Origin: Candidatus Woesearchaeota archaeon
GTDB taxonomy: Archaea > Nanobdellota > Nanobdellia > Pacearchaeales > GW2011-AR1
Length of the DNA: 22,250 nucleotides
NCBI GenBank assembly: GCA_964444095.1
Contig: CAYUEW010000010.1
Coordinates: forward strand, 1 to 22,250
Reading direction: 5' to 3'
Of this stretch, positions 1 to 16,242 are shown piece after piece. Made by a program: the position numbers and the translations under genes. Position 1 is the first letter of the stretch. Each line of letters starts with the position of its first letter. The notes below the pieces were generated by a model that saw only the letters and a list, made by a program, of their open reading frames with translations, was not told the DNA's origin and did not search any database.

Positions 1-1
1 A

Positions 2-316
2 CCTGATGGAATTTTAACTAATTCTTCTTTGCAGTATGTTAGAGATTTTTTAATGGAGCACGCACAAATTGAGGCAGTTGTTAGTTTGCCACAGATTGCG
101 TTTAGTCATTTTGGAGCAGGTGTTAAGTCTTCTTTGGTTTTTATTAGAAAGAAAAAGAAAGATGAGAAGTTAGGAAATTATCCAATCTTTATGGCTATTG
201 CTGAGCATATTGGTTATGATGCAACAGGAAGGAAGGACCTGATAAATGATTTTGATAAAATTCTGGAAGAGTATGGAAAGTTTGAGAAAGATAAGAAAGG
301 TTATGGGGGTTGTTAA
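2..316 (+). CDS. hsdM: Type I restriction-modification DNA methyltransferase subunit (HsdM), C-terminal fragment; 5' end lies outside the window
   Basis: The frame is open from the left edge (nt 2: PDGILTNSSLQYVRDFLMEHAQIEAVVSLPQIAFSHFGAGVKSSLVFIRKKK...). This block resembles the conserved segment that follows the NPPF catalytic motif in N6-adenine HsdM-type methylases. The catalytic motifs themselves are not in the window. Stop TAA 314-316 is followed one nt later by the hsdS ATG. Confidence 0.75.
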   Translation, partial: PDGILTNSSLQYVRDFLMEHAQIEAVVSLPQIAFSHFGAGVKSSLVFIRKKKKDEKLGNYPIFMAIAEHIGYDATGRKDLINDFDKILEEYGKFEKDKKGYGGC

Positions 317-317
317 G

Positions 318-1622
318 ATGGAATGTTTTTGTGTAATGTCAAATGAAATTGAGGGGCGAATTGACCCTTTTTATTACAGGATGGAATTCCTGGAATTAGA
401 GAAAAAGGTAAAATTAAAGTCAAATAAAGTTTTGGGGGATTTTATTGTTGAGATTTCTGGAGGAGCGACGCCTAGTAGAAATAATGAAGAGGAATTATAT
501 TCTAATGAAAAAGAAGGAATTCCTTTTCTAAGAGTTCAGAATATTACTGAAGAGGGTTTAGTTCTTAACAATGTTAAGTTTATTACTAGAGAAGTTCATG
601 AAAAACAATTAAAGAGAAGCCAAGTAAAAGAAGATAATTTATTAATCACTATAACTGGGAGAATTGCTAGTTCTTGCGTGGTGCCAAAAGGTTTTGAAGG
701 GAATATAAACCAACACTCAGTTGTTATTAAAACGGAAAGTTTAGAGATTAGTAACTTATTAGCAAAATACCTTAATTCTTCAATTGGTCACAAACTTGCA
801 TTACGAAGAACTTCTGGGGGGTCTAGATTGGCTTTAGATTATATTTCTTTAAAATCTATCCCAGTTATTGAAGAAGCCAAAATAGTTGAATTAATGGATA
901 AAGCCTATCTTCAGAAAAAACAAAAAGATGCAGAAGCAAAGAAACTCTCGGATTCAATTGATGAATTTGTTCTTGAGCAGTTGGGGATAAAAATCCCTGA
1001 ATTAAAAAATAAAATGTGTTTTGTTGTTGATTATAATCAAATTCAATCTGGAAGAATAGACTCAGTTAATTTTGCAAATCCTCAAGATACCTTAAGCTCA
1101 ACTAAAATTAAAGAAAAAATTCTTGATGAAGTTGCAAGTTTAGTTAAGGGTCAAAGTATTACAAAAGAAAATATTACCTCTGGAAATTATCCTGTTGTTG
1201 CAGGGGGACAATCAAGCCCTTATTCAATTAATGCTTGTAATCATGAAGGTAACGTAATAACTGTTAGTGCTTCTGGAGCATATTCGGGTTATGTTTGGTA
1301 TCATTATAATCCCATTTTTGCATCTGATTGTACTGTAATAAAATCTTTAGATGAAAAAGAAGTTCCAACATTTTATTTATATTGTGTGATGAAAGCTAAA
1401 CAAAAATTTATTTACAATATGCAACAAGGAGCAGGACAACCCCATGTTTATTCGAGAGATTTATCAAATCTAAAAATTCCTTTACCTTCTCTTCCAATCC
1501 AAAATAAAATAGCTGAGGAAGTAAAACAACGAATGCACAAAGTAGAGCAGTTACAGAAAGAAGCAAAGGAAGAATTGAAAAAAGTAAAGAAAGAAATTGA
1601 AGAGATGATTTTGAGTCAATAA
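318..1622 (+). CDS. hsdS: Type I restriction-modification specificity subunit (HsdS), two target-recognition domains
   Basis: ATG 318 sits directly after the hsdM stop (ATG 338 is an alternative). The N-terminus ...EGRIDPFYY is typical of HsdS. Two variable halves are each followed by a K/E-rich helical spacer (KAYLQKKQKDAEAKKLSDSIDEFVLEQLGI, and IPLPSLPIQNKIAEEVKQRMHKVEQLQKEAKEELKK). This gives the TRD1-CR1-TRD2-CR2 layout. Confidence 0.85.
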   Translation: MECFCVMSNEIEGRIDPFYYRMEFLELEKKVKLKSNKVLGDFIVEISGGATPSRNNEEELYSNEKEGIPFLRVQNITEEGLVLNNVKFITREVHEKQLKRSQVKEDNLLITITGRIASSCVVPKGFEGNINQHSVVIKTESLEISNLLAKYLNSSIGHKLALRRTSGGSRLALDYISLKSIPVIEEAKIVELMDKAYLQKKQKDAEAKKLSDSIDEFVLEQLGIKIPELKNKMCFVVDYNQIQSGRIDSVNFANPQDTLSSTKIKEKILDEVASLVKGQSITKENITSGNYPVVAGGQSSPYSINACNHEGNVITVSASGAYSGYVWYHYNPIFASDCTVIKSLDEKEVPTFYLYCVMKAKQKFIYNMQQGAGQPHVYSRDLSNLKIPLPSLPIQNKIAEEVKQRMHKVEQLQKEAKEELKKVKKEIEEMILSQ

Positions 1623-1625
1623 AAA

Positions 1626-2765
1626 ATGGTTATTGTTTCTTATCAAATAATATTTACAGAAAATAAGGATATAAAAAAGGAATTAGTTGAATTACTAAAA
1701 AATGCTTTTACAGATAATTATGATGATTTTTCTGAAGAGGATCTTGATTCATTAATAGAAATCAAATATTTTAAACAAATTGATGAATACAAAATCTTGG
1801 TTGGTTTTGATATAACTTTCAATGAAATACGTATGAAAGTTGATTCTGTGATCTCTGATTTTAATGATTATTTGAATGAGCATGAAAATATCTCTTTAAT
1901 TGTTAAATTTTATGATGAAAACTTATTCTCAAATTTATCTCAAATATATAAAAGGATATTTAGTATTGAAATGCAGTTAAGAGAGGCGGTCACCCTTATT
2001 TTCTTAGATACATATAAGACCGATTACTATGATTTGTTAAAAGATTCTAATATAAATCCTTACTCTGGAAAAGACGGTTTGCCAAAAGATGAAAAACAAA
2101 AAAGAGATTTTTTGGAGAAAACATTAGAAAATGAGTTTTTTCATATTTCGTTTAATCAGTATATAAGTCTATCAAACATCAAAGAATTAAAACAAGAAGA
2201 TTTATTTCCAATAACAGAAGTATCAGAAAATTTTGCAGAATTTAAAGAAAAGATATTGAATAGGGGGATTACGAACAAATATTATAAAACTTTTTTAGAT
2301 GAAATAAAAATAATCATGGAAAATCTTGAAAAAATAAGAAATTGTGTTGCTCATAATAGAAATTTAAGAGAAGAGTTAGCAGTGTGTGAAAAATATTTTG
2401 AAGAAATTGAAGATAAATTAGATAATTTTTTTATCAATGTTTTTGAAGTAGATTATTTTGGACCTTTCACAGATATTTGGGAAAAAGGAGGAGGAGATGA
2501 AGTTGGTAATAATCTCAAGAGTTTTTATTTCAAAAAAGAAGTTTTAGATTTTTATGAAAAGGGAGATCAATCAGAGAAATTTATTGTTGAAAGAAGAATA
2601 ACAAGTTACCTTAGAGACCAAGGAGCGATATGGGGATTAAAATTTTCTGAAAATGAAGGAGTTCTTTCGGCTATACTTGTAGATCTAAAACAAATGCCAA
2701 GAATACATCAAGAATTGTGGGAGAAATATTTGATCCCCCTTCCCCACTCACACACACTTTTATAA
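1626..2765 (+). CDS. Hypothetical protein with a HEPN-type Rx4H (RNxxAH) motif; putative R-M-associated RNase or abortive-infection-like effector
   Basis: The 379-aa ORF starts 3 nt after the hsdS stop on the same strand. Motif R238-N-C-V-A-H243 (nt 2337-2354, context LEKIRNCVAHNRNL) is preceded by the helix-like IEMQLREAVTLIF. This is the pattern seen in HEPN families such as Abi_2 (AbiD/F), DUF4145 and Swt1-like. No P-loop is present. I recognise nothing in the N-terminal ~100 aa or the C-terminal ~110 aa. Confidence 0.55.
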   Translation: MVIVSYQIIFTENKDIKKELVELLKNAFTDNYDDFSEEDLDSLIEIKYFKQIDEYKILVGFDITFNEIRMKVDSVISDFNDYLNEHENISLIVKFYDENLFSNLSQIYKRIFSIEMQLREAVTLIFLDTYKTDYYDLLKDSNINPYSGKDGLPKDEKQKRDFLEKTLENEFFHISFNQYISLSNIKELKQEDLFPITEVSENFAEFKEKILNRGITNKYYKTFLDEIKIIMENLEKIRNCVAHNRNLREELAVCEKYFEEIEDKLDNFFINVFEVDYFGPFTDIWEKGGGDEVGNNLKSFYFKKEVLDFYEKGDQSEKFIVERRITSYLRDQGAIWGLKFSENEGVLSAILVDLKQMPRIHQELWEKYLIPLPHSHTLL

Positions 2766-2958
2766 ACCCACATCTTCATCAAATTATATAACAAATGGTT
2801 AGTAGGTCTTGAGCTTAAATGTCTCTTATGACTTACGCTCAAGAAGTAGCATATTTCTTGAATTTTGTTAATTGTCTTTATTGACTAGATAATGAATAGT
2901 TGACTGATTAAGTTGGCTTGCTGAATAGTTGAGTAATTGACTAAAAGAAAAATCGAAA

Positions 2959-4335
2959 ATGGAAAAATTCACAAAGTTAGGATTAAGCACAGAACTCACA
3001 GATGTATTGAGGCAATTTGGTTTCAAACAACCTTCTGAGATTCAGGAGAAAGCAATTCCTTTAGCAATGGCTGGGAATGATATTATTGGAGGTTCTGCGA
3101 CAGGAAGCGGAAAAACTTTAGCGTTCGCATCACCAATTATTGAAAACTTAAAACCAAATAGAAACATCCAAGCATTAATTTTAACTCCAACAAGAGAACT
3201 CGCAGAACAAGTTGCAACTGCAATTAGTGATTTTAGTAGAAACAAAAAATTAAATGTCTTAGCAGTTTATGGTGGTGTAAGCATTGAACCTCAAATGAGA
3301 AAACTTGCTATGGCAGATGTGCTCGTCGGAACGCCCGGAAGAATTTTAGACCATCTTCAAAGAAGAACATTAAATTTGAGTAATGTTAAATTCCTTGTTT
3401 TAGATGAAGTCGACAGAATGTTTGACATGGGTTTTTCTAGGGATGTTGAAAGAATCCTTCACGAATGCCCAGAAGACAGACAAACAATGATGTTCTCGGC
3501 AACAGTTTCAGGAGACATTGATTATCTATCTAAGAAATATACAAGAAACCCAATAGAAATTTCTGTAGAATCTTATGTTGATGCTTCTAAATTAGAACAA
3601 ATTTATTACGATGTGCCAGACAATAAAAAATTCTCATTACTAGTGCATTTATTGAAAAAAGAAGAAGCTGGTTTTGTTCTGGTTTTTTGTAGCACACGAA
3701 GAAACGTAGATTTTGTTGCAGATAATTTGATAAGATTAGGAATTAAAGCAAAAGCTATTCACGGCGGGCTTGACCAAAAAAAGCGATTAAGAGTTTTAGA
3801 TGAATTCAAGAAAAAAGGTGAAGGTGTTTTAGTTTGTACAGATGTTGCCGCAAGAGGTTTGGACATTAAAAGTGTAAGTCATGTTTACAATTACGACATT
3901 CCCAACGACCCTAAAGATTACATTCATAGAATCGGGCGAACAGCAAGAGCAGGAGAAGAAGGAAAAGCTGTAACAATTTTAGCCAGTAGAGATTACGAAA
4001 AATTCGGAGCATTGTCAAGATACGAAGAAATCAATATAACCCCTAATGACTTACCTCAACTTGAAATTGTTAGAATCAATATAGACTCTGGTAACAGAGA
4101 CAGCAGATTCAAGGGCAGTCCGAGAAGAAATGATTTTAACAGAGGACCTAGGCAAAATAATTTTAATCGTGGGCCAAGAAGTTCAGGAAGAAGTGATGGA
4201 AGAAGTCCGAGAAGTGATGATAGACCAAGAAGAAACGATTCAAGAGGACGAAGTTCATATAATCAAAGGCCAAATTCACGAAGACCTTCAGGGAGAAATA
4301 ATAATTTTAAAAGTCCGAGCAGACATAGAAGGTAA
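2959..4335 (+). CDS. DEAD-box ATP-dependent RNA helicase with an Arg-rich, low-complexity C-terminal tail
   Basis: Motifs read directly: Q motif (FKQPSEIQ), motif I (GSATGSGKT), Ia (PTRELA), Ib (TPGR), II as DEVD (VLDEVDRM), III (SAT), V (ARGLD), VI (HRIGRTARAG). The last ~85 aa are R/S/N/G-rich. Confidence 0.95.
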   Translation: MEKFTKLGLSTELTDVLRQFGFKQPSEIQEKAIPLAMAGNDIIGGSATGSGKTLAFASPIIENLKPNRNIQALILTPTRELAEQVATAISDFSRNKKLNVLAVYGGVSIEPQMRKLAMADVLVGTPGRILDHLQRRTLNLSNVKFLVLDEVDRMFDMGFSRDVERILHECPEDRQTMMFSATVSGDIDYLSKKYTRNPIEISVESYVDASKLEQIYYDVPDNKKFSLLVHLLKKEEAGFVLVFCSTRRNVDFVADNLIRLGIKAKAIHGGLDQKKRLRVLDEFKKKGEGVLVCTDVAARGLDIKSVSHVYNYDIPNDPKDYIHRIGRTARAGEEGKAVTILASRDYEKFGALSRYEEINITPNDLPQLEIVRINIDSGNRDSRFKGSPRRNDFNRGPRQNNFNRGPRSSGRSDGRSPRSDDRPRRNDSRGRSSYNQRPNSRRPSGRNNNFKSPSRHRR

Positions 4336-4812
4336 TTATTTTACTTTTTTCCAAACAAAATAAGAAAGGATTCCAAACACAATTGTTCCTGCAATAAATG
4401 CAGGTATTTTATTTTCTAGGTTTTTTACAATTCCTTCAATAATTAATGCTGTACCTGTGCCAATTCCAACAATCTGAAATGGTAGATAAGTGATGAATAA
4501 ACCACCTATTGATAAAATCAAACCTGCAATTACAAAAACATAAAATATTCTATTGTTATAAACATCTCTAGCTTCGTCATATTCATCCCCACATTCAGAA
4601 TAAAAATCACACCCCATATTTAACCATATTCCACCTTCATCAATACACTCTTGTTCAGTCCACTCTACTTTTTGAGAATAGCTATCTCTATCACAATAAT
4701 CATTATATTCTGGACTTGGGTAAAAAGCATACACCCCCAAGTTTATCAATCCAAAAAGAATTAATGCCAAAGCAATTCCCATTGTAATCTGCATCCCTTT
4801 TTTCTTTTTCAT
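4336..4812 (-). CDS. Hypothetical membrane protein with about 4 TM segments and a Cys- and acid-rich extracytoplasmic loop
   Basis: A hydrophobic N-terminal segment (MGIALALILFGLINLGVYAF) is followed by a ~60-aa loop with 4 Cys (YCDRD...QECIDEGG...MGCDFYSECGDEYDE). Three more hydrophobic segments follow. The gene converges on the helicase gene with adjacent stop codons. No family recognised. Confidence 0.6.
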   Translation of the reverse strand: MKKKKGMQITMGIALALILFGLINLGVYAFYPSPEYNDYCDRDSYSQKVEWTEQECIDEGGIWLNMGCDFYSECGDEYDEARDVYNNRIFYVFVIAGLILSIGGLFITYLPFQIVGIGTGTALIIEGIVKNLENKIPAFIAGTIVFGILSYFVWKKVK

Positions 4813-4831
4813 GTTGTTTAAAATATTTTAT

Positions 4832-5071
4832 TTATTCTTTAGGAACTTCTTCTTTTTTCTCTTCGACTTTCTTACCTTCAAATTCAGAATAATGACACTT
4901 ACCACAGTAAACTCTTCCTTGTGATTTCATTAAAAATACTCCTGGCCCACATCGCGGGCAAGTTCTTTCTCTTGTAATCTTATCTCCTTCAATTTTGTAT
5001 TTAGTATATTTCTTACTAGTTGGTTTGTTTTTGTGTGGTTTCTTTCCTTTTTTTATTATTTTTTTAGGCAT
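4832..5071 (-). CDS. rps27ae: 30S ribosomal protein S27ae (eS31)
   Basis: Lys-rich N-terminus plus the zinc ribbon CPRCGPGVFLMKSQGRVYCGKCHY. It sits in the conserved archaeal position after S24e. It has an extra K/E-rich C-terminal tail. Confidence 0.9.
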   Translation of the reverse strand: MPKKIIKKGKKPHKNKPTSKKYTKYKIEGDKITRERTCPRCGPGVFLMKSQGRVYCGKCHYSEFEGKKVEEKKEEVPKE

Positions 5072-5072
5072 T

Positions 5073-5342
5073 TTATTTTTTTCCTTTTACTTTCTTTTTT
5101 GGTTCTGCTTTTTCTTTTTCTTCACTTGAAGAATAAACATTTGCATTTACCATAAATATCTTCGCGCCGAATTGTCCATGTATTCCTTTAACTTCTACTG
5201 CTTCTGGTTGAGCTGAAAATTTCTGAGCAATTAAATTTTTTATTTCTTCTCTACTCGGAGTAATTGCAGCTTCTACACTTCCCTGAATTTCTTTTCGTGC
5301 AAATAACGGATTTTCTGTTTCTTTAATTATTTCTAGTTCCAT
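5073..5342 (-). CDS. rps24e: 30S ribosomal protein S24e (eS24)
   Basis: MELEIIKETENPLFARKEIQGSVEAAITPSREEIKNLIAQKF...GIHGQFGAKIFMVNANVY matches the S24e pattern (NPLL-RKE...TPSR...FG...Y). Synteny is spt4-S24e-S27ae. Confidence 0.9.
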   Translation of the reverse strand: MELEIIKETENPLFARKEIQGSVEAAITPSREEIKNLIAQKFSAQPEAVEVKGIHGQFGAKIFMVNANVYSSSEEKEKAEPKKKVKGKK

Positions 5343-5347
5343 AAGAA

Positions 5348-5536
5348 TTACCTTGTTTTAATTGCGAAATTTCCTTTACTTTTAATATCTAATTTTTGAG
5401 CTATTTCTGATTTTTCTGGATTTAAGATTACAATTCTTCCTTTGAAACTTTCTGTTGATTCCTTAGATTCACACTTAGGACATTTATCTCCTTCGTAAAT
5501 TGTGTTACAAATTTTACATGCTTTTTGTTTTACCAT
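5348..5536 (-). CDS. spt4: Transcription elongation factor Spt4 (RNAP subunit E'')
   Basis: 62 aa with the zinc ribbon CKIC...CPKC followed by FKGRIVILNPEKSEIAQKLDIKSKGNFAIK, as in archaeal Spt4. It lies immediately downstream of rpoE'. Confidence 0.85.
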   Translation of the reverse strand: MVKQKACKICNTIYEGDKCPKCESKESTESFKGRIVILNPEKSEIAQKLDIKSKGNFAIKTR

Positions 5537-6138
5537 TATTTTTTCTTTCCCGCCTTTGCTTCTTTATCTTGAATTTTTGCTACTTTCTCTGCATCTTTCT
5601 GTTTATTTAATCTATCTTCTTTAATCCATTCAATTTTACCTAAACCCGGTTGTCTCATAGTAAGTCCGATTTTTAATTCTCCGCCCTTGTGACTAATTGC
5701 GACGATTCTTGCAAGACATAAATCTCCTTGTTTTAAACTTCTTTTACTTGATTTACCTAATAATGAATTTGCTTTACTAAAACTAACATAATCTTCCATT
5801 GTTTGACTAATGTGGATCATTCCCCTCATGACACCCATGTCAATAAAAGCGCCAAAGTTCGCAATTTCTGAAATAACTCCATATACTAATTCATGTAATT
5901 CTGGTTTCCAAGCTAACAGTTTAAATCTTGATTTGTAATAAGTTGCTCCGTCGCCAGCAATGATTACTCCCTCGCCAACTTCTAAAACTTCAATCACAGA
6001 AACAACATGTCCTATTTCCTTATCGTAACTCCCAGTGTAGGTTTCATGGAGTTGCTGATTAACAGACTCTGTAGTAGGCAAACCAAATAATTTAGGTTCT
6101 ACTCGGATATGGTCTTCAATCTCAGTTAAATAAAACAT
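5536..6138 (-). CDS. rpoE: DNA-directed RNA polymerase subunit E' (Rpo7) with S1 domain
   Basis: The N-terminal Rpo7 fold signature (MFYLTEIEDHIRVEPKLFG...) is followed by an S1-like domain (GVISEIANFGAFIDMGVMRGMIHISQ...GDLCLARIV...LTMRQPGLGKIEW). It has a Lys-rich C-terminal extension and overlaps the spt4 start by 1 nt. Confidence 0.9.
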   Translation of the reverse strand: MFYLTEIEDHIRVEPKLFGLPTTESVNQQLHETYTGSYDKEIGHVVSVIEVLEVGEGVIIAGDGATYYKSRFKLLAWKPELHELVYGVISEIANFGAFIDMGVMRGMIHISQTMEDYVSFSKANSLLGKSSKRSLKQGDLCLARIVAISHKGGELKIGLTMRQPGLGKIEWIKEDRLNKQKDAEKVAKIQDKEAKAGKKK

Positions 6139-14685: not shown

Positions 14686-16242
14686 ATGATAAAAGTGGTT
14701 GAGCCAAAAGTTAATGTTATTGATTTTGGTCCTAAGTTGATTCTTAAGGATGGAACAGCAATAACTCCTGATGAATTCGTTTATGGAGCTGCTGGAATTA
14801 CTTACAAGGATGTGGGTGCCTTGAGTGAACTTATCGAACTAAAAAAGAATGATGTTGAAATTCGAGAAAAAATAAAAACTAGTTTAATAAAATCTGGTGG
14901 TGCAGGACATGCTTCTATGGCAACTACTCCTGGCATGTGGATTTTTTTAGAAGGTAATTGTTCGAAGCTCGTGGATTCTATTTTTACTGGTGCTAGATTT
15001 GCAAGTTCTTTAATGCCTTCTGGAAGAAGAATTCCCATCACAAAAGACCAAATTGTTGTTCCAAGAGGAATTCATAAAAGAGGGAAAAGTGCAGAGAATG
15101 TTTATGTTCAAAGTCTTGAAAATTGTATTGGTGCTTATGAAAAATTGCAAACCCAAGGAGTTCCGAAACAAGAGGCAAGCAAAATTGTTCCTTACGGACA
15201 TAGGGGAGGGGGTTTTGTGTTTATGCCTATGGAAACATTAATCTCAATATCTAAAAATATGGGATATGCTCCAGAAGATATTCCTGAAGAAGGAAGAATG
15301 ATTGTTTCTCAATTAGAAGAATTCATTCATGGTAATGGAATGGAAATAACTTATGAGGCAAGGAAGGCTGCTCCGCGAGAGGGTTGTCCAAATCCAAATA
15401 TTTTTCACCACCGAAATAATTTAGCACAAGAACTTATAATGCAAGGGGAAAGTGAATTACATACTCCAACACTCTTAACTGAAAGTTACATTCCTAGCTT
15501 AGAAAGAGATGGAAGGATAGCCCAATTTCTAATGCAAAGAGAAGAATTATTTGAGAAACATCCAGAAAACATATGGAGAGAATGGCCCAACTTATTATCT
15601 AAACTTGATGAAATTGTTCAAGATTATAATAATTCTATTCAGGTTACTACATTGTCTAATTCTCCTTGGAGAGTTTGGGGAGAAGTTAAAAGACATAGAA
15701 CACTCCCACAAATAACAGAACCTATTTATCATGCTGTTGAACGAGCTAATCATATCAAAAATCATAATTTAGATTCTCCGTTGGTAGAGGATGTTTTTTC
15801 CCTTCCTGAATCTGTAAAAAATGAAAAAGAAAATTTTCATCTATGGAAAGACACGTTTATGGATTCTCTAACGGCTTATAATTCTTTAACAAAAATGGGT
15901 GTTTTAGAAAGTGATGCTATTGCTGTTATTCCTCGTGGATTAAAAATGGGAATTGTAAAAACCTTTGATTTGTTTAATTTAACAACAGGATATATGTCTT
16001 TAAGATTATGCACAACTGCTGAACCAGAAATGAGAGAAACAACTGAATACGAAAAAACTTTGTTTTTGGATTCAAATATGCCAGAAGCAGTAAAAAAAAT
16101 AATAGAACCAAAATGTGCATATACTGGTTTCTGCCCAGATAGGAATTGTGGTAAAGTTAAAAATTATGTCCCTTCTTATGACAAAGAATTTCATAAAGAA
16201 ATGCAATTAATTAGAGAAAAAGAAATTAAAGCTGTCATATAA
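14686..16242 (+). CDS. Tandem-duplicated, divergent ThyX-like (flavin-dependent thymidylate synthase-like) protein
   Basis: The N half ...GAGHASMATTPGMWIFLEGNCSKLVDSIFTGARFASSLMPSGRR...YEKLQTQGVPKQEASKIVPYG... aligns ungapped with the ThyX core (GHxSxxEH..FxF.i.g.SR...qxxRHRxxSxxxxSxRY...G.p.E.AR.vLP). The C half ...VTTLSNSPWRVWGEVKRHRTLPQ...YNSLTKMGVLESDAIAVIPRGL...LRLCTTAEPEMRE repeats that layout and keeps RHR (nt 15691-15699). The position between nrdJ and dut fits a dTMP-synthesis role. Confidence 0.55.
   Translation: MIKVVEPKVNVIDFGPKLILKDGTAITPDEFVYGAAGITYKDVGALSELIELKKNDVEIREKIKTSLIKSGGAGHASMATTPGMWIFLEGNCSKLVDSIFTGARFASSLMPSGRRIPITKDQIVVPRGIHKRGKSAENVYVQSLENCIGAYEKLQTQGVPKQEASKIVPYGHRGGGFVFMPMETLISISKNMGYAPEDIPEEGRMIVSQLEEFIHGNGMEITYEARKAAPREGCPNPNIFHHRNNLAQELIMQGESELHTPTLLTESYIPSLERDGRIAQFLMQREELFEKHPENIWREWPNLLSKLDEIVQDYNNSIQVTTLSNSPWRVWGEVKRHRTLPQITEPIYHAVERANHIKNHNLDSPLVEDVFSLPESVKNEKENFHLWKDTFMDSLTAYNSLTKMGVLESDAIAVIPRGLKMGIVKTFDLFNLTTGYMSLRLCTTAEPEMRETTEYEKTLFLDSNMPEAVKKIIEPKCAYTGFCPDRNCGKVKNYVPSYDKEFHKEMQLIREKEIKAVI

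Follow-up and report, generated by a model that had tools for sequence, protein, structure and literature searches.

What is the open reading frame (ORF) of 379 amino acids (aa) that directly follows a pair of restriction-modification (R-M) genes in a Candidatus Woesearchaeota archaeon, and does its product act with the R-M enzyme or merely share its operon? The ORF occupies positions 1626-2765 of the forward strand in a 22,250-nucleotide (nt) stretch of contig CAYUEW010000010.1 (assembly GCA_964444095.1), which is referred to here as the window. Caged toxins that back up R-M systems are currently a subject of phage-defence research, with PrrC, Ronin, EcoR22I and PARIS as examples. To our knowledge, the characterised toxin-backed cases all involve type I or type III enzymes in E. 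coli. In the original prediction, made from the sequence of the window, the ORF was placed in this setting as an orphan HEPN-motif gene, located in a prrC-like slot downstream of a type I hsdM-hsdS pair. The analysis described here assigns the protein, by profiles and motifs, to the Abi2/Swt1 branch of the HEPN superfamily, and its partner to the BcgI/BsaXI-like enzymes. With a probability of roughly one half, the protein is a PrrC-like ribonuclease (RNase) that depends on a type IIB-like restriction complex and provides R-M-controlled abortive-infection defence.

The HEPN family and its invariant residues

The HEPN-family gene (1626-2765, forward strand) is the third of its module and starts 3 nt past the S-subunit gene, the TAA of which lies at 1620-1622 and is followed by AAA and then by the ATG at 1626. 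This spacing had been described before, as had the motif RNCVAH at aa 238-243 (nt 2337-2354) and the absence of a Walker A motif from the protein; all three were confirmed on the sequence, and the family scans likewise gave no match to ATPase families. Of the segments that had been singled out, IEMQLREAVTLIF corresponds to aa 114-126, FTDIWEKGGGDEV begins at aa 281 and IWGLKFSENEG begins at aa 335. A lone match to the pattern Rx4-6H is not significant, because about 0.56 such matches are expected by chance in a protein of 379 aa; its weight comes from conservation.

The term 'orphan' has to be withdrawn. When 1.84 billion cluster representatives were searched exhaustively with a profile, a family of 383 representatives from bacteria and archaea emerged at an expectation value (E) ≤ 1e-3, 217 of which were found at E ≤ 1e-30, with a median length of 285 aa. 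A word-indexed search with the 379-aa protein recovered just 19 relatives. UniRef already lists one member, WP_015791102.1 from Methanocaldococcus fervens, as a 'Swt1-like HEPN domain-containing protein'.

Conservation was counted in 164 representatives aligned to the family profile, using the ungapped sequences in each column. The proposed catalytic pair is invariant among these homologues, with R238 and H243 each present in 162 of 162 sequences and N239 in 161 of 162. Upstream, E115 is found in 162 of 163 and R119 in 163 of 164, while N169 (163 of 164) and Y179 (164 of 164) are equally well kept. The signature elements of HEPN domains are Rx4-6H with a polar residue after the arginine, and an upstream acidic residue that typically forms part of an Ex3[KR] motif (PMC3710099). 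Both are present in the window protein, the former as RNxxAH in R238-N-C-V-A-H243 (2337-2354, forward strand), an Rx4H signature with a polar asparagine after R238, and the latter as E115-M-Q-L-R119 (1968-1982, forward strand). The invariance of these catalytic-type residues is a direct observation.

Profile comparisons point in the same direction. Among 150 members scanned with Pfam, every family matched by more than one member was a HEPN family (Abi_2 in 38, HEPN_Swt1 in six and HEPN_MAE_28990 in three), and the best Abi_2 match within the family had an E of 9.6e-6. In the window protein, Abi_2 (PF07751) matched with 19.5 bits and an E of 1.3e-3 over profile positions 9-182 of 184, and PDC-M34B of PADLOC matched over the HEPN core with an E of 1.7e-5. 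The NCBIfam and PHROGs scans gave no informative match. The organism is also represented by a longer contig, L001, which matches the window at 99.7% identity over 5.9 kb and carries a second HEPN gene upstream of the R-M genes; the family of this TPR-HEPN protein (alignment A5) has a precomputed PF18731 annotation. Profile-profile comparison of the window protein's family alignment (A3) with A5 by hhalign gave a probability of 93% and an E of 3.4e-7 over 103 columns, covering the whole HEPN core; both motifs are aligned, with E115/R119 placed against E178...R182 of the PF18731-annotated family. Taken with the invariant RNxxAH and Ex3R motifs, these links to Abi_2 and HEPN_Swt1 uphold the HEPN assignment that had been proposed.

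Predicted structure and domains

The full-length AlphaFold2 (AF2) model has a mean predicted local distance difference test (pLDDT) score of 72.8 and falls into three parts, namely aa 1-97, 98-275 and 276-379. The N-terminal domain (aa 1-97; 1626-1916, forward strand) is modelled as beta-alpha-beta-beta-alpha-beta with a pLDDT of about 90. In a Foldseek search of the PDB, the full-length model gave only weak ferredoxin-like matches, all to this domain (S6, the NikR C-domain and CcmK, E about 1e-2). The A3 profile also matches an Lrp/AsnC protein (2dbb_A) marginally in this region, at its RAM domain (E 0.0023). As modelled, the N-terminal ~97 aa are a ferredoxin-like alpha/beta fold that is kept across the family. 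A hidden Markov model (HMM) of the N-domain alone matched only HEPN-containing proteins and loci, and no fusion of the N-domain to other effectors occupying this slot was seen. Found solely with the HEPN domain of this family, the N-domain is a natural candidate for docking, dimerisation or ligand sensing.

The HEPN domain (aa 98-275; 1917-2450, forward strand) was modelled on its own with a pLDDT of 87.1. A long helix (98-130) holds the Ex3R motif and is followed by an insert of ~87 aa with short helices, which includes the invariant E168-N169 and Y179. Helix 218-243 terminates in RNxxAH, a loop spans 244-247, and the last long helix covers 248-274. In described HEPN domains, the motif lies where helix 3 ends and the loop to helix 4 starts, and an insert occurs between helices 2 and 3 (PMC3710099). 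By secondary-structure order, the placement of the motif and of the insert in the AF2 models agrees with this layout.

The C-terminal tail (aa 276-379; 2451-2762, forward strand) is modelled with a pLDDT of only 30-56 and has no assignable family. Both termini had been regarded as unassignable; this still holds for the C-terminal ~105 aa, while the N-terminal ~100 aa can now be described as ferredoxin-like. The tail is lineage-specific, being confined to the six closest relatives (P0001-P0006) in a jackhmmer search within the family. When the C-terminal 108 aa were searched against the database by themselves, no match was obtained, the window protein itself included. About a fifth of the members (32 of 164) are at least 340 aa long, and their C-terminal tails are unrelated to that of the window protein. 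Single members carry additional domains: a Mrr_cat restriction nuclease domain is fused to one (E 2e-14), and a Zn_ribbon_Top1 domain occurs on another.

The RM and S partner genes

The window opens with the last ~100 codons of the gene for the RM subunit (1-316, forward strand; Pfam N6_Mtase on 2-313), the 5' part of which lies to the left of the window. The S-subunit gene follows at 246-1622 on the same strand and encodes two target-recognition domains, matched by Pfam Methylase_S in two stretches (E 6e-22) and by Specificity_I of PADLOC. On L001, where a gene caller places S at 4348-5697 (start equivalent to window position 273), the RM gene is complete at 2595-4391. Its product of 598 aa contains HSDR_N_2, an N-terminal PD-(D/E)xK nuclease domain, together with N6_Mtase and Eco57I (Pfam), and the methyltransferase part is of the gamma class of N6-adenine enzymes. 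Among solved structures, RM.BsaXI, the RM subunit of a type IIB enzyme, is the best relative of the full-length protein (E 4.7e-43), and type I HsdM proteins score far below it. BsaXI is an (RM)2S enzyme with the N-terminal nuclease catalytic residues E73, D90, E105 and K107 (PMC11997821). In the RM proteins linked to HEPN genes, E46/E47, D84, E99-x-K101, DPACGSGGF (motif I) and NPPFG (motif IV) are found in 52-54 of 54 sequences.

Judged by domain content and by its closest solved relative, the partner is a self-sufficient BcgI/BsaXI-like (type IIB-like) RM and S enzyme, predicted to need no HsdR motor. HsdR was absent from all seven annotated contexts of homologues. A classical type I hsdM-hsdS pair was rejected, as the nuclease domain is fused to the methylase and these seven contexts include no separate HsdR. 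The original prediction had read the genes in that way, with the ORF in a prrC-like slot; since RM has its own nuclease and hsdR is missing from the seven contexts, a slot flanked by hsdS and hsdR does not exist here. The DEAD-box helicase gene downstream (2959-4335) was also considered as an hsdR substitute and rejected, as it is of the housekeeping DEAD/Helicase_C type and is not kept beside homologues.

The likeness to BsaXI and BcgI comprises a single RM polypeptide in which a PD-(D/E)xK nuclease is joined to a gamma-class methyltransferase, a separate HsdS-like S subunit and retention of the E...D...ExK residues. The systems differ in that the literature searched describes neither BsaXI nor BcgI as having a HEPN gene as a third component. 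They also differ in length, the RM protein having 598 aa here versus 916 aa in RM.BsaXI; the 'knob' and 'paddle' of BsaXI may therefore be missing. Annotation pipelines are likely to label such loci as incomplete type I systems, because the best PADLOC model is 'MTase_I', and under this label the fused nuclease and the third gene would both go unnoticed.

Variants of the gene pair occur among the homologous loci. RM-S fusions were found in L005, L038, L053, L059, L062 and L064. In L006 and L007, an 86-aa ORF and a gene for a DUF553 protein separate RM from S (L006:5074-6364, L007:5119-6409), and in L072 about 1.2 kb is inserted between them (~1770-2997).

Linkage of the HEPN gene to RM and S

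In all seven annotated homologue contexts, genes for HSDR_N_2+N6_Mtase, Methylase_S and HEPN proteins follow in this order, with RM and S fused in M. fervens, and the distance from S to the HEPN gene is -8 to +31 nt. A wider scan of one genome per GTDB species, in which RM and S were sought with their own profiles, yielded 59 HEPN loci. Their hosts are DPANN and other archaea, Chloroflexota, Cyanobacteria, Bacteroidota, Planctomycetota, Proteobacteria, the candidate phyla radiation (CPR) and others. S lies upstream on the same strand in 55 of the 59, within 70 nt in 50 of them, and RM is present in 51; the loci lacking RM include three truncated at a contig edge and one decayed locus (L015). 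The enrichment beside R-M genes that had been anticipated is thus borne out (55 of 59 for S), and the linkage of the HEPN gene to the RM and S pair across bacteria and archaea is near-obligate. The three-gene arrangement was also found on one IMG/VR contig. Three loci from Gracilibacteria and Peribacteria (L058, L063 and L069) could be read only with genetic code 25; in these, S and the HEPN gene are 0.9-2.2 kb apart. No conserved antitoxin-like neighbour of the HEPN gene was found besides RM and S.

The HEPN and RM proteins also diverge together. Their pairwise identities are correlated with r = 0.80, a value reached in none of 2000 Mantel permutations, while the correlation between RM and S is weaker (0.61).

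The association is one-sided. A reverse census covered 80 metagenome loci (L072-L151) that encode RM relatives at 55-91% identity, 45 of which extend at least 1.2 kb beyond S, and only eight of these 45 related loci contain the HEPN gene. In the remainder, S is often followed by a different abutting gene; the genes found there encode Mrr_cat, an OLD-type ATPase-TOPRIM, AAA_15/AAA_21, DUF4268 (twice), DUF4365, PDDEXK_5, PDDEXK_9, Bro-N and Schlafen AlbA_2 proteins, serine recombinases and IS200. The RM and S pair is autonomous; the HEPN gene, by contrast, essentially never occurs without it. In L128, a weak HEPN-domain match lies one gene beyond the position directly after S.

Such tight association may suggest that the HEPN protein is an integral RNA-targeting or regulatory subunit that works in normal restriction rather than as a fail-safe. 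It could, for example, be recruited to unmethylated sites or activated by DNA cleavage and degrade the transcripts of an invader without killing the cell, or it could tune restriction against methylation. Translational coupling and co-divergence with RM would suit this role, and the nuclease motifs of HEPN-linked RM proteins are always intact, so that restriction and HEPN activity coexist. HEPN domains are known to fuse to restriction nucleases and helicases (PMC3710099). One member of the present family is joined to Mrr_cat. Against this stand RM and S pairs with up to ~90% RM identity that have no HEPN gene, which indicates that the gene is dispensable for both restriction and modification; an integral subunit is accordingly unlikely.

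Proposed mechanism

The R-M-controlled abortive-infection RNase put forward in the original prediction is still the best working model, now with a type IIB-like enzyme as the controlling complex. In this model, the HEPN gene comes third in a mobile module of three genes and is translationally coupled, and its product would be a metal-independent RNase. The (RM)2S complex may hold the RNase inactive, or activation of the RNase may depend on that complex. Failed restriction, or a phage anti-restriction factor that blocks restriction, would then unleash the RNase, which would cut transfer RNA (tRNA) or other RNA and abort the infection, following the logic of PrrC with EcoPrrI. The N-domain would be the likeliest docking, dimerisation or sensor element.

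Several results weigh against this model. Two of them concern the nature of the protein. The Abi_2 match of the window protein (19.5 bits) does not reach the gathering threshold of 25.6 bits, just as its HEPN_Swt1 match (PF18731; 12.8 bits, E 0.15) does not reach 27.5. Further, Foldseek searches with the HEPN-domain model (pLDDT 87) returned no HEPN entry, solved or viral, the best E being 0.65 in the PDB and 0.71 in BFVD, and PDB sequences searched with the profiles A1 and A3 yielded no HEPN structure either. Because Foldseek found no such structure, the HEPN assignment rests on profiles and on the position of the motifs. Taken at face value, the missing structural match and the Pfam scores below curated cut-offs would allow for a HEPN-like helical domain that is non-catalytic and only binds RNA, nucleotide or protein, or even for a protein outside the superfamily with a convergent motif. 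This is very improbable, given that both motifs are invariant over more than 160 divergent sequences and align with those of the PF18731-annotated family. Non-catalytic HEPN domains usually lose Rx4-6H (PMC3710099).

The remaining points concern the linkage. RM and S were undetected at four of the 59 HEPN loci (L052, L054, L067 and L070), co-divergence can arise from co-inheritance without functional coupling, and the position after S accepts varying cargo, so that co-location alone is weaker evidence than it may seem. The HEPN gene might then be independent cargo, that is, an abortive-infection or toxin RNase that is complete in itself, detects phage unaided, uses the operon promoter and is not regulated by the restriction complex. 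The diversity of genes after S where the HEPN gene is absent and the low count of eight in 45 accord with this, and many proteins of the Abi2 family, such as AbiD and AbiF, function as single genes (PMC3710099). A free-standing toxin would, however, be expected elsewhere too, yet S is upstream in all but four of the loci, over many phyla and both domains of life. Co-divergence with RM, the start/stop coupling to S and the lack of any other conserved antitoxin-like partner also speak against it, and on balance we regard independent cargo as rather unlikely.

A more specific version of the R-M-controlled RNase can be formulated, in which the HEPN protein would be a stoichiometric regulated arm of a type IIB complex that occurs in bacteria as well as archaea, with its RNase switched by the state of (RM)2S through the ACT/RAM-like N-domain. 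The switch might be an open/closed change upon binding to unmethylated DNA, the excised site-containing fragment that results from type IIB cleavage, or blockade by a DNA mimic. This elaboration is speculative and probably incorrect. If true, it would couple DNA restriction directly to RNA degradation, bring abortive infection to a restriction class not known to be linked to it, and provide an archaeal counterpart of PrrC.

More generally, the family would carry the principle of toxin-backed R-M systems over to BcgI/BsaXI-like enzymes and into the archaea, where DPANN lineages with tiny genomes are among the hosts. It comprises some 400 natural sequence clusters. Cultured bacterial hosts include Cyclobacterium salsum, Deminuibacter soli, Flavobacterium selenitireducens and Dolichospermum sp. 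FACHB-1091, and the natural RM and S relatives without the HEPN gene offer ready-made controls.

Comparison with known systems

A close parallel in organisation is PrrC with the type Ic enzyme EcoPrrI of E. coli, in which the gene for a HEPN RNase also lies inside an R-M operon. The R-M complex masks PrrC until phage blocks restriction (PMC3710099). The asymmetry of the association is shared as well, in that prrC is found only with its R-M genes while most such R-M loci lack prrC. The differences are substantial. At its N-terminus, PrrC carries an ABC-type ATPase with a Walker A motif, whereas the window protein has a ferredoxin-like N-domain of ~97 aa and no ATPase; and prrC is flanked by the hsdS and hsdR genes of a motor-driven type I enzyme, whereas the partner here is a BsaXI/BcgI-like RM and S pair with no hsdR. 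No sequence-level relationship of the window protein to PrrC was detected. Membership of the PrrC/RloC group was rejected, in view of the absence of a Walker A motif or ATPase and of any hsdR in the seven annotated contexts.

By profile, the protein belongs to the same HEPN branch as Abi2/AbiD/AbiF and the Swt1-like HEPN proteins (PF07751, PF18731), with which it shares a motif of the RNxxAHNR type. It differs from these families in scoring below their Pfam cut-offs, in having an extra conserved N-domain and in being tied to one specific RM and S partner. A survey published in 2013 linked at least 16 HEPN clades to R-M systems, described Abi2/AbiF/AbiD as 'embedded in R-M operons' and proposed the analogy to PrrC (PMC3710099). 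Abi2/AbiF/AbiD were bacterial in that survey, whereas the present family also occurs in DPANN, methanogenic and other archaea; M. fervens is not mentioned in one supplementary file of the same paper.

R-M-like complexes that cage or trigger a cell-killing effector upon encountering anti-restriction proteins have been demonstrated experimentally for Ronin, an HsdM-HsdS decoy with RonA, and for EcoR22I (bioRxiv 10.1101/2023.04.06.535777). In Ronin, the nuclease has been lost and the effector is a membrane peptide of 61 aa, whereas the present system retains intact nuclease motifs and has a predicted RNase as effector. A decoy of the Ronin type was rejected on these grounds, the candidate effector being a 379-aa HEPN protein of soluble type.

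With regard to PADLOC, the window protein is a weak match to protein B of PDC-M34, and the gene that strongly resembles PDC-M34B is a separate gene of the same island with a DUF262/GmrSD_N partner. No paper on PDC-M34, on 'Swt1-like HEPN' or on HEPN with type IIB enzymes was found in the searchable literature. The presence of HEPN genes within R-M operons was already known, but we could not find a description of this particular family and module, with a ferredoxin-like N-domain joined to an Abi2/Swt1-type HEPN domain, strict linkage to BcgI/BsaXI-like RM and S genes, and occurrence in both bacteria and archaea.

Genomic surroundings

The S and HEPN genes have a GC content of 25-27% (window positions 1000-2500) versus ~33% for the whole window. 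Their neighbours are housekeeping genes, including those for S27ae, S24e, Spt4, an RpoE-like protein, tRNA-Trp, NifS/NifU, ribonucleotide reductase and Rpb2; S27ae, S24e, Spt4 and Rpb2 are consistent with the archaeal host that had been supposed. The low GC content beside such genes is consistent with horizontally acquired DNA. For this archaeal sequence, a scan for sigma-70 promoters and terminators gave nothing informative.

Mobility raises the prospect of an addiction module, in which RM and S neutralise a HEPN toxin so that loss of the module kills the cell, with no direct role in phage defence. The low GC content relative to the window, the differing genomic contexts between hosts and the transposase genes that flank the module in L008 and L009 all suit a mobile element of this kind. 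R-M systems, however, already serve as addiction modules unaided, and the HEPN gene lies inside a defence island, with TPR-HEPN_Swt1 and DUF262/GmrSD_N genes just upstream. An addiction module without a defence role is accordingly quite doubtful, and an abortive-infection RNase controlled by the R-M complex is preferred.

The rest of this island is visible on L001. Just upstream of RM lies the second HEPN gene (L001:360-1259), encoding a 299-aa protein with TPR and HEPN_Swt1 domains (PADLOC PDC-M34B, E 7e-21). It is followed by a gene for a 414-aa GmrSD_N/DUF262 protein (L001:1315-2559; PADLOC NsnA, E 5.5e-26). With these two genes beside the RM-S-HEPN genes, the island therefore comprises two restriction-type modules, each with its own HEPN gene of Swt1/Abi2 type. 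The motif IRNxVAHNRNL is common to both HEPN proteins of the island.

HEPN RNases leave 2',3'-cyclic phosphate ends. Genes for RNA-end processing occur near some homologues, namely a LigT/2H phosphoesterase gene ~235 nt downstream of the M. fervens HEPN gene (L005:9396-9917) and an RNA 3'-phosphate cyclase (RTC) gene ~6 kb upstream in L006 (439-1515) and L007 (473-1549). Their proximity could be meaningful or a coincidence.

Two further observations concern genes of the window outside the module. The ORF of 518 aa at 14686-16242, located between the genes for a class II ribonucleotide reductase and a dUTPase, matches ThyX (Thy1) in residues 327-453 only and is about twice the usual length of ThyX. 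The DEAD-box RNA helicase encoded at 2959-4335 ends in a tail of ~75 aa that has a high content of R, G, S, N and P and contains repeats, for example RGPRQNNFNRGPR...SPSRHRR.

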